Source: Planctomycetia bacterium (GTDB lineage: Bacteria > Planctomycetota > Planctomycetia > Planctomycetales > Planctomycetaceae). Taken from it: a stretch of 64,000 nt of DNA. The notes beneath the pieces are model-generated. The model saw only the letters and a list, made by a program, of their open reading frames with translations, did no database searches and was not told where the DNA came from. The stretch is taken from positions 2,097 through 66,096 of the forward strand of contig JAPLNX010000165.1 of assembly GCA_026400935.1 (NCBI GenBank), in the 5' to 3' direction. Every line of letters begins with the position of its first letter. The first letter of the stretch is position 1. Shown one piece after another: positions 40,970 to 43,777 of the stretch. The position numbers were made by a program, and so were the translations under genes.

Positions 40970-43777
40970 ATGAGCCAGTCGATGGACCAGACGAACGAAC
41001 CCGCAACGCAGACTCCGCCAGCTCGCAATCTGACTCCCGCGATGGAGCGGTACATGGAAGTGAAGCGGCAGAATCCCGGTTCGATTTTGCTATTTCGGAT
41101 GGGTGATTTTTACGAGCTGTTTTTCGAGGACGCTCAGACGTCGTCGAAGGTGCTGGGCCTGACCCTGACGAGCCGTGACAAGAACTCGCCGAATCCAATT
41201 CCGATGGCGGGATTCCCGTATCATGCGTTGGAAGGCTATCTGCGCAAGCTGATCACGGCGGGATATCGCGTCGCTGTTTGCGAGCAGATGGAAGATCCGA
41301 AGCTCGCGAAAGGGATGGTCAAGCGCGAGGTCACGCAAGTCGTCACTCCGGGAACGTTGACTGATGAAGCTCTGCTTGATCCGCGCGAATCGAACTTCCT
41401 CGCGAGCGTTTGGCCGAGCCACGTCGGGCAGGCCGCTCGCCTGTCATCGACAGCCAACTCAGGAGGAACTGGCGAGCCGCCTGTTCTACGAGGGACAGTC
41501 GGCCTCGCTTGGTTGGAAGTTTCGACCGGTCGGTTTCTGGTAGCCGATCTTGAACCGTCGCAGTTGGCTGACGAACTCGCTCGCATCCGGCCATCGGAGT
41601 GTGTTTACCCCGAGCACTTCAAAGCGGACGAACGATTGCGACCTCTTTTCGCACGCAGCGGCCTGCTGGCAACGCCACGTGCTCCGTGGTCGTGGGCTGA
41701 AGAAGCTTGCCGCGAGACGCTGCTCAAGCACTTCGGCACAACGACCCTCGAAGGCTTCGACATTGATGCCACGTCAGCCGGTGTGACCGCTGCCGGGGCG
41801 CTGCTCGAATACGTTCAAGAGATGCAGAAATCATCGCTTGCTCACATCAGCCGCATAGAACCGTATCGACGCGGCACGACGCTGATCATCGACGAAGCGA
41901 CGCGATCGAGCCTCGAGCTCACTCGCACGATCCGCGAAGCCAAGCGTGAAAACAGTCTGCTTTCGGTGCTCGATGAAACCGTCTCACCGATGGGAGCACG
42001 CTTACTCTCCGAATGGCTGTCGAACCCTTTGACCGACATCATCGCGATCAATCGACGATTAGACGCTGTCGAAGAAATGACGCACGACACGATGTTTTGC
42101 CGTGACTTGCGCGAGATCTTGTCAGAAACCTACGACCTGCAACGGCTCACGGCCAAAGTTGCCACCGGTCGAGCGAGTCCGCGCGATCTCAGCAGCCTGA
42201 CCCGCTCGCTCGCGTTATTGCCGAAGCTCAAAGCGAAGCTCGCGGGACGACATAGCGAACGTGTCCAGAAGCTCGAAAGTAACCTCGATCTTTGCGCCGA
42301 AGTTCGAGCTGATATCGACGCGATTCTCGTCGATGAACCGCCGCTGCTGACGACCGAAGGCGGGATGGTTCGAGATGGATTCAACTCTACGCTCGACGAA
42401 CTGCGCGACCTCGCTCGCGGCGGCAAAGAGTGGATCGCGAAATACCAAGCGAAGGAATCGGAGCGGCTCGGTTTGCCGAACCTGAAGGTCGGCTTCAACA
42501 AGGTCTTCGGCTACTACCTCGAAGTGACCGCCGCTCAAGCAGGAAAAATTCCGCCCGAATACATCCGCAAGCAAACGCTCAAGAACCAAGAGCGTTACAT
42601 CACGCCGGACCTCAAAGAGTACGAAGACAAAGTCCTGCGAGCTGAGGAGCGAGCCGTCTCACTCGAACAAGAACTCTTCGCCGCATTGCGCGATCGAGTC
42701 GCCCAAGCCACCGCTCGTTTGAAGCAGACAGCCGATGTGATCTCAGAAGTCGATGTCATCGCCGCCCTCGCGACGCTCGCAGTGAAGCAAGGTTACTGTC
42801 GCCCCGAACTCTGCACGGAACCGGTCCTCGACATCCGCGAAGGCCGACACCCGGTGCTTGATAAACTGATGCCAGCCGGGGCGTTTGTGCCAAATGATGT
42901 CCGATTGGGAGCACGAGCCGAACGGGAGGGCGAGGCTCCCGCCGAGCCGCATTCGGCACAAACGCCCGAAAGCATGGCTCGGCGGGAGCCTCGCCCTCCC
43001 AACGCATCCGGTCGCGTCCAACTCATCACCGGCCCCAACATGGCGGGTAAAAGCACCTACATCCGCCAAGCCGCGTTGCTGACGATCATGGCTCAGATCG
43101 GCTCATTCATTCCCGCCAGCGAGGCGTTGGTCGGTGTTGCCGATCGCATCTTCGCTCGCGTCGGGGCCAGTGACGAACTGAGCAAAGGCCAAAGTACCTT
43201 CATGGTCGAGATGACCGAGACCGCGCGCATCCTGAACTCCGCTAGTGACCGCAGCCTCGTGATCCTCGACGAGATCGGCCGCGGCACCAGCACTTACGAC
43301 GGCATCTCGCTGGCGTGGGCGGTCACCGAATTTCTGCACGATCAAATTCATTGCCGCACACTGTTCGCGACGCACTACCACGAACTGACCGAGCTGACCA
43401 AAACGCTTCCAAACGCCAGCAATTGGAACGTCGCGATTCGCGAGCACGGCGATGACATCGTCTTCCTCCACAAAATCATCGAAGGCCCCGCCGACAAGAG
43501 CTACGGCATCCACGTCGCCAAAATCGCCGGGCTTCCGAGAGACGTCGTCGAACGCGCCCAAGTCATCCTCGCCCAACTCGAATCCGACCACGTCGACGAA
43601 TCTGGCCGAGTCAAAATCCCCGAAAGAAAAAAGAAATCCCGCGACCGCCAGTTGGCCCTCTTCATCGAGCCAGATCATCCCGTGATCGAGAAACTAAAAT
43701 CTCTCGACATCGAACAACTCACTCCGATCGCCGCGCTGCAAAAGCTGAATGAATTCCGGCAGGAGTTGGGGAAGTGA
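40970..43777 (+). CDS. mutS: DNA mismatch repair protein MutS
   Basis: [25 protein letters not shown], Walker [42 protein letters not shown]. Start taken at ATG 40970. Confidence 0.95.
42924..43000. repeat. perfect 25-bp inverted repeat (27-nt loop) embedded in frame in mutS
   Basis: gggagggcgaggctcccgccgagcc (42924-42948) is the exact reverse complement of 42976-43000. It encodes [25 protein letters not shown]. Confidence 0.9.

Follow-up and report, generated by a model that had tools for sequence, protein, structure and literature searches.

How does a mismatch-repair gene come to carry a perfect palindrome in its reading frame, immediately upstream of the Walker A loop, and what is the inserted sequence? 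The question arises at mutS in a 64,000-nucleotide (nt) stretch of DNA from a Planctomycetia bacterium (assembly GCA_026400935.1, contig JAPLNX010000165.1, positions 2,097 to 66,096), referred to here as the window; coordinates count from its first letter. An earlier note, made from the sequence alone, proposed that a DNA palindrome resembling a repetitive extragenic palindromic (REP) element had been captured there as a surface loop of the ATPase domain. Our follow-up indicates that the insert probably consists of two inverted copies of a dispersed, REP-like 25-nt repeat, arranged much as in a REPIN (REP doublet forming a hairpin) and lying in frame in a β-hairpin turn of MutS as a selfish or neutral passenger at a site of recurrent insertion.

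An in-frame hairpin ahead of the MutS Walker A loop

The hairpin-forming element measures 77 nt in total, two 25-nt inverted repeats and a 27-nt loop, and lies in frame within an open reading frame (ORF, 40916-43777) whose probable start is the ATG at 40967. The features are as follows:

40967..43777, + strand: mutS coding sequence, intact, 936 codons including the stop, with five MutS Pfam domains
42911..43009, + strand: extra coding segment between RLG and GRVQL, the hypervariable hotspot loop
42924..42948, + strand: left arm, 25-mer GGGAGGGCGAGGCTCCCGCCGAGCC (family F1), 25/25 complementary to the right arm
42949..42975, + strand: 27-nt loop between the arms, GCATTCGGCACAAACGCCCGAAAGCAT
42976..43000, + strand: right arm, GGCTCGGCGGGAGCCTCGCCCTCCC, the perfect reverse complement of the left arm

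The palindrome described in the earlier note was confirmed at all 25 paired positions, as was its 27-nt loop, and translation runs through the element exactly as quoted there. When the window was shuffled with dinucleotides preserved, 0 of 100 shuffles gave two arm matches, even with three mismatches allowed. Compared with shuffled controls, the element region folded at -101.8 kcal/mol as RNA (z = -9.2) and with z = -9.5 as DNA, and direct reading of the 77 nt found zero stop codons across all six frames. A search of the entire window against Rfam gave no match at gathering thresholds; the microRNA-precursor matches that appeared at relaxed thresholds lay below the cut-offs, were generic long hairpins and were discarded.

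The window protein is a bacterial MutS1, with domains I-V represented by all five MutS Pfam families (PF01624, PF05188, PF05192, PF05190 and PF00488) and an intact Walker A motif, GPNMAGKST. It matched E. coli, Taq and human MutS-family structures with E values of about 1e-43 to 1e-53 (E. coli, about 1e-53). The element contributes about 31 residues after FVPNDVRLG. In phmmer alignments with E. coli MutS (1E3M and others), query residues 3-41 corresponded to residues 567-604 and query residues 74-204 to residues 606-736; the alignment split exactly at the insert, leaving 32 query residues opposite one E. coli residue, in agreement with the roughly 30 extra residues estimated earlier. As a baseline for loop length only, 75 diverse MutS proteins were taken from a metagenome scan (54-68% identity, among the matches listed), and in 67 of them the loop from (F/V)PND to ITGPN was 11-12 residues long. 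An AlphaFold2 model of the window MutS had a mean predicted local distance difference test score (pLDDT) of 72.9. Residues 645-681 fell below 50 and had no secondary structure, between strands at 641-646 and 683-688, and the extra segment fits a disordered excursion from the β-hairpin turn that precedes the Walker A loop in this model. The surface loop proposed earlier is supported to the extent that the segment is predicted disordered between two β-strands.

The element was also found outside the window assembly. L001, an independent ENA metagenome contig 98.5% identical over mutS, has the identical element and loop bar one substitution in the right arm (CCT to CAT), and the element is therefore not an assembly artefact of the window. 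In L004, an ortholog of about 80% nucleotide identity, the arms lie at the identical position and frame, with two mismatches between them, around a loop that is again 27 nt but of unrelated sequence. We prefer orthology of the window and L004 doublets because they share the 13-nt left offset, the frame and the 27-nt loop length; independent insertions of F1 in the two lineages were judged less likely. It is extremely improbable that the element arose as an artefact of sequencing or assembly, for example as a chimeric hairpin. Library preparation and assembly can create palindromes, and the contigs of relatives often end at repeats, but the reading frame is preserved, L001 is independent, L004 has a diverged version with another loop at the same site, and related doublets occur in hundreds of assemblies from different pipelines.

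Insertions in the MutS turn and the dispersed 25-mer

The host organism groups with Planctomycetaceae (a member or close, with Schlesneria-like relatives) and not with Pirellulales, from which the earlier note proposed to take orthologs. Among 116 relatives listed, the region that follows FVPNDVRLG spans 10-11 residues (P0039, P0041, P0042) to 82, and about 75% keep some insert; in the MutS ortholog alignment the flanks of the loop are nearly invariant on both sides. Each ortholog obtained at the DNA level had a different self-complementary element at this position, bar one that was empty:

L125 (P0041): empty, RLGRGARIQL, with the full-length reading frame intact
L127: perfect GTAG doublet with 24-nt arms, CGTAGCACAGGCGGCTCGCCTGTG
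L128: GTAGGTCAGGCTTTCCAGCCTGACC doublet
L131: GTAGCC-type doublet
L002, L129, L130: inverted arrays of G-rich heptamers or octamers
L126: short 10-nt palindrome

A conserved loop of the same length, which the earlier note had set against its own proposal, is not common to the orthologs: the site is empty in P0041/L125 and holds unrelated palindromes elsewhere. The mutS tree, drawn from 861 codons free of gaps, placed the 25-mer doublet in two separated clades and was incongruent with insert type; all pairs of sequences at about 90% identity had differing inserts. The family at the L128 hotspot had another doublet 6 kb away on the same contig. These sequence comparisons indicate that the MutS loop is an insertion hotspot, accepting at least six unrelated types of hairpin repeat in the planctomycete clade.

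We infer that the hotspot is caused by a permissive site, possibly together with repeat-targeted insertion. The insert itself would be a selfish or neutral passenger, probably tolerated because the turn is structurally permissive and the GC-rich unit is free of stops in six frames, and hotspot inserts would decay over time into low-complexity loops. It is highly improbable that the segment is instead a lineage-specific functional loop of MutS, for example a partner-binding peptide, in which palindromy is incidental. Such a loop would suit a region of MutS that is naturally variable, and one in which many Planctomycetaceae have long acidic or Ser/Ala-rich inserts that are no longer palindromic; however, the peptide sequence is not conserved among close relatives, AlphaFold2 predicts disorder, and what is conserved is the 25-mer as DNA, which is found again in non-coding contexts.

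The same gene contains another insert of this kind:

41423..41488, + strand: second in-frame mutS insert, 22 amino acids (aa), a decayed doublet of the GTAG-type family CGTAGCACAGGCGGCTCGCCTGTG seen at the L127 hotspot

The family match within it lies at 41467 on the minus strand, with three mismatches, and residues 155-173 are predicted disordered (pLDDT <50, AlphaFold2). This insert was present only in the window and L001 (P0001) and absent from 36 of 36 other orthologs aligned. What survives of the earlier idea of a REP-like capture is a palindrome translated as an extra loop by the Walker A motif; its single capture does not, since the hotspot is clade-wide and a second in-frame doublet is present.

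A codon-scale site that holds at least six unrelated hairpin repeats in close genomes, together with an empty allele, is an unusually clean natural experiment. It could be used to study target choice and survival of repeats, their turnover and decay into low-complexity loops, and recombination seeded by hairpins. The inserts inflate and diversify MutS of Planctomycetota, bring peptides of repeat origin into annotations, and can cause breaks or chimeras in metagenome assemblies.

Inserts of 30-34 aa were also observed at the same β-hairpin turn in an unrelated metagenome MutS lineage (L155, L157 and L174). Their predicted DNA folding was very stable, at -0.58 to -0.70 kcal/mol per nt, and on these sequences the hotspot may reach beyond Planctomycetaceae.

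The 25-mer that forms the arms was scanned in one genome per species, with Y permitted at two positions (the unit is also given as GGGAGGGYGAGGCTCCYGCCGAGCC). It occurred in at least 120 loci, chiefly of Planctomycetota (Planctomycetaceae, Pirellulales, Gemmataceae, Isosphaera and Phycisphaerae) and, among the matches listed, also in contigs labelled Verrucomicrobia, Chthonomonas, Acidobacteria, Binatia, Ignavibacteria and others. Fourteen IMG/VR viral contigs (L212-L225) hold it as well. The genes adjoining its copies were ordinary housekeeping genes, and other metagenome-assembled genomes (MAGs) had several copies per contig, for example seven arms on three contigs of one Planctomycetaceae bin.

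Among the 169 arms listed, 92 (54%) had an inverted partner at ≤5 mismatches. The partner was always on the GAGCC (loop) side and essentially never on the outer side, at spacers of 9-87 nt. In the family comparison (L005-L124), conservation started and stopped precisely at the 25-mer boundaries; the loops of doublets were unrelated except for the usual G...C closing pair, and neither a characteristic spacer length nor related spacer sequences were seen in the family. A small subfamily has a related 32-nt loop (GCGAGCCAGGG.ACGT...; L032 7685-7766, L052 49-130, L068 4985-5066, L061 3624-3705 and L070 208-289), and its presence across different MAGs suggests that some doublets propagate as whole units. 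No flanking direct repeat indicative of target-site duplication was found in 29 of 36 doublets; the window doublet is flanked by AAC/AAC only and that of L004 by none. Identity as a miniature inverted-repeat transposable element was rejected, there being no target-site duplication and the internal sequences being unrelated. Neither the 25-mer nor its peptides (GRSLALP, ARQEPRPP) turned up in any paper in a full-text literature search.

Some copies of the 25-mer were arranged differently or stood in other surroundings. Exact copies were also present on long contigs, namely a 1.76-Mb Ignavibacteria, a 463-kb Verrucomicrobiae and a 206-kb Acidobacteriota contig. At L046 4997-5669, four direct copies lie 146-334 nt apart inside a larger repeat with conserved flanks (caaataagacgttc ... 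ggggtacatcgg), an array-like arrangement unlike the doublets. The viral contig L219 has inverted 125-bp copies, 90% identical, at 5030-5154 and 7728-7852, each containing a 25-mer doublet with a 27-nt loop and together bracketing 2.6 kb in the manner of a composite element; none of the ORFs in this interior resembled a transposase.

Loop, arms and mosaic boundary

The loop of the window hairpin contains a sequence that matches its own gene in inverted orientation:

42879..42896, + strand: source of the 18-mer, the conserved GAFVPND codons of mutS
42950..42967, + strand: inverted copy (17/18 bases) of this upstream mutS sequence, inside the loop

The loop scored 15 in inverted comparison with the ±300-nt flank, against a maximum of 9 for shuffled loops. 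Among about 60 doublets, a flank-derived loop was seen in the window and L001 only, and the idea that doublet loops are in general inverted copies of their flanks was rejected. From the sequence, a template switch at the hairpin appears to have overwritten the loop, and the unrelated loop of the same length in L004 fits such overwriting of the window loop. In quasipalindrome template-switch mutagenesis (Ripley; Lovett laboratory), hairpin sequence is rewritten from a nearby inverted template, and the classical cases correct imperfect arms. The process would yield the 18-nt inverted copy in the loop; here, the copied sequence comes from outside the hairpin. It is nevertheless very unlikely that the whole palindrome was made locally at mutS, by template switching or fold-back synthesis, rather than imported as a repeat. 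Template switching characteristically leaves an inverted copy such as the one seen here, which matches at 17 of 18 bases a stretch of mutS lying 28-71 nt upstream, but the arms are identical to the 25-mer of at least 120 unrelated loci with unrelated flanks, and a flank-derived loop is rare among doublets; template switching therefore explains the loop at most.

The two closest sequences also differ in an uneven manner along the gene. Of the 45 positions at which the window and L001 differ, the initial 2122 nt hold 13 and the final 788 nt hold 32. The maximum chi-square test places the breakpoint within the right arm, at 42990 (permutation p < 0.001), where the divergent block has its first site. 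On the left side of the element, the window matches L001 at 99.86% identity, and each of them matches L002 at 88.6%; on the right side, pairwise identity among the three is about 96%. At 4% divergence, the true breakpoint probably lies within a few tens of nt of the first difference, and hence in the element. The mosaic pattern fits recombination at the hairpin, and the effect on recombination at mutS suggested earlier thereby gains circumstantial support from a breakpoint that maps into the right arm. Enterobacterial mutS alleles were reportedly found by Denamur and colleagues in 2000 to be mosaic, with segment-wise incongruent histories produced by recombination; here, the boundary coincides with an intragenic hairpin repeat, in one pair of metagenome contigs.

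The window is also more diverged from L001 in a second, small patch, at 41212-41470, with 10 differences in about 260 nt, ending inside the upstream mutS insert (41423-41488). Between the two mutS inserts, only two differences were counted in 1.5 kb.

A resident hairpin may attract further insertion, replacement and rearrangement at its site; stalled replication, template switching or a single-strand transposase acting on hairpins could be the cause. Such attraction would explain the turnover of inserts, the loop rewritten from upstream mutS and the breakpoint in the right arm. A bolder and doubtful reading takes the MutS turn as a lineage-wide landing pad for hairpins in Planctomycetaceae, where resident hairpins, beyond being passengers, would serve as recombination or template-switch junctions that repeatedly reshuffle the ATPase-domain half of the gene and the variable downstream region, which contains a gene for a REP-associated tyrosine transposase (RAYT). 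If true, the repair system that polices recombination would have its evolution tied to the dynamics of hairpin repeats.

The arms have changed far less than their surroundings. The window and L004 have different bases at 48% of four-fold degenerate sites; the arms differ at 2 of 50 positions (about 24 expected), the loop at 16 of 27 and the 13-nt left flank at 7 of 13. The same contrast between conserved arms and a diverged loop was found in an intergenic doublet, the GTAGGTCAGCCTTTCCAGGCTGACC doublet of the L128 hotspot family, which occupies one orthologous site between the His_Phos_1 and DUF2617 genes in six relatives, L126-L131 (e.g. L128 5373-5453); about 8% of its arm bases differ, and its loops are more diverged. 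The arms would stay near the consensus of their family, with the loop and short flanks free to drift neutrally, which is the usual pattern in REP doublets. This comparison argues for upkeep of the units at the sequence level, by selection for recognition, gene conversion or re-insertion, and lends no weight to a function specific to mutS.

A selected cis-acting role of the hairpin in mutS is unlikely. As a stable RNA or DNA stem-loop, the hairpin would then tune expression, through ribosome pausing or mRNA processing, or act as a site of recombination or fragility at which mutS alleles are shuffled or switched, so modulating mutation rate. Arms about 12-fold more conserved than four-fold sites (2/50 versus 48% between the window and L004) would suit such a role; however, arm conservation with loop drift is also seen in the intergenic doublet and is a general property of REPINs (PMC3116915). 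The stem is very stable in the folding computation, and about 75% of the 116 relatives listed retain some loop insert, but the inserts belong to unrelated families, add 0 to about 70 residues, and leave the empty-site ortholog intact; therefore no particular structure is required. The breakpoint at 42990 in the right arm (p < 0.001), across which the phylogenetic signal flips, would suit a recombination site, but it is one observation with possible assembly chimerism.

We favour the passenger account over these alternatives, and the following points weigh against it. The 25-mer, which begins GGGAGGGCGA, is without the tag that marks canonical REPs (GT[AG]G or CGTC), and its sole internal stem, GGCTC/GAGCC, measures only 5 bp. 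GTAG or GTGG tags are present in other repeats of the window and of its relatives. Identity of the exact 25-mer across phyla is unusual for REPs, and mis-binning covers only some cases. Among 146 ORFs scanned with Pfam at distances of up to 700 nt from copies, no transposase was enriched, and all-against-all clustering of the ORFs in 120 loci gave common planctomycete families only, with no cognate transposase. No 25-mer copy beyond the two arms was found in the 64-kb window, even at 3-4 mismatches, nor any further copy in about 150 kb from close relatives. The broken RAYT gene downstream of mutS is flanked by GTGG-type hairpins and not by the 25-mer, and tblastn with the repaired window RAYT against the collected loci, including L005-L124, gave no match outside the window. 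Strong conservation of the arms could instead mean that the hairpin is selected at the mutS site, and the mosaic breakpoint, which derives from two metagenome assemblies, could be a strain chimera at the repeat. Further copies of the 25-mer, by which the earlier note proposed to recognise a dispersed element, exist in at least 120 loci of other genomes, with none beyond the arms in the 64-kb window. By its sequence features the 25-mer is a REP-like dispersed unit, short of a proven REPIN, because it has no GT[AG]G/CGTC tag, no characteristic spacer length and no cognate RAYT found.

Known repeat systems and neighbouring repeats

In-frame palindromic repeats in repair genes are already known, and the present case adds mutS. 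What it adds beyond this is a single site with many independent states, a non-canonical 25-mer common to several phyla and the coincidence with a mosaic boundary. Rickettsia palindromic elements are about 100-150 bp long and Rickettsia-specific; Ogata and colleagues reportedly described them in 2000 as in-frame palindromic DNA translated as surface segments, with protein function kept. We know of no recurrent single-site hotspot of this kind for them. The likeness is functional only, an in-frame palindromic insert; the present unit measures 25 nt, lies in a planctomycete and is unrelated in sequence.

Intragenic REP doublets have been described as in-frame inverted dimers of 20-30 residues in linkers and loops, enriched in replication and repair genes (uvrA, uvrB, recB, dnaE2, polA and ligase), with different REPs at about one recB site in two Xanthomonas species (Di Nocera, De Gregorio and Rocco 2013, PMC3733652); mutS is not among the genes in that paper or its supplements. 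The MutS insert resembles them as an in-frame inverted doublet in a repair gene, tolerated in a loop, and differs in its 25-mer without a GTAG/CGTC tag and in one loop struck by at least six unrelated repeat types. REPINs, which are mobilised by RAYTs, consist of inverted REP units with a less conserved spacer, and singlets occur as well (Bertels and Rainey 2011, PMC3116915). Our repeat shares with them inverted conserved units of about 25 nt, the hairpin, the neighbourhood of housekeeping genes and the occurrence of singlets; in contrast, its spacers range over 9-87 nt, no cognate RAYT was identified and the mutS copy is intragenic. The 25-mer is also common to several phyla, whereas REPIN families are lineage-specific. 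In-frame REPs in peripheral loops have been reported for tnpA-REP genes, and class 3 HuH-Y1 proteins, with atypical non-GTAG hairpin repeats at high copy, for Planctomycetes and Acidobacteria (Quentin et al. 2018, PMC6006769). The class 3 taxa overlap the carriers of the 25-mer; no class 3 gene was seen here and a CnGA foot was not identified beside the small hairpin of the 25-mer, and a link between the two is only a lead.

Further hairpin repeats flank mutS directly:

40793..40927, no strand assigned: inverted doublet with 40-nt arms, family CCCCACCGAGCTTGTCTCGGTGG, directly upstream of the mutS start codon
43779..43830, no strand assigned: composite hairpins GAGCACGAT..ATCGTGCTC plus GTGGGGCACGTTTCCAACGTGCC, beginning 2 nt past the mutS stop
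43839..44502, - strand: RAYT gene, broken (NF047646, E = 3.3e-21, 75.7 bits against a cut-off of 80)

The CCCCACCGAGCTTGTCTCGGTGG family has another doublet at 36440-36545, and contig L001 terminates inside this repeat. The composite hairpins recur at 44529-44580, about 44697-44745 and about 45997-46047. The RAYT pseudogene is disrupted by a 16-nt tandem duplication, CGACGACTGGCTTGAT, at about 44263-44294; with its composite hairpins it forms a REPtron at 43779-44760, the RAYT lying <100 nt from the mutS stop codon. A RAYT with its own hairpins beside mutS shows that hairpin-repeat machinery is, or was, present in the genome. L002, the closest other relative, lacks the 2.26-kb block at 43786-46042, which comprises the RAYT pseudogene and, at 44762-45988, a TPR_12 protein gene; mutS of L002 is followed by 10 nt and then by sequence matching the window from 46043 onwards. 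L001 has the TPR gene (73% identity) and no RAYT. The right edge of the block coincides with the hairpin repeats at about 45997-46047.

Other inverted repeats were found elsewhere in the window:

2495-2610, + strand: in-frame inverted repeat with 30-nt arms, 90% complementary, in ORF 1237-3060
38195-38398: intergenic inverted repeat, 41-nt arms 122 nt apart (GGAGTGCTGCGGCTCGACGCAGCCCTCC...)
4710-4774: canonical intergenic GTAG doublet, GTAGGACGGGCACTCCTGCCCGTCC

The first of these is translated (LASEAASAPQ...TGGLTPPRSP) in a long low-complexity linker of a predicted membrane protein, and intragenic palindromes are therefore not peculiar to mutS.

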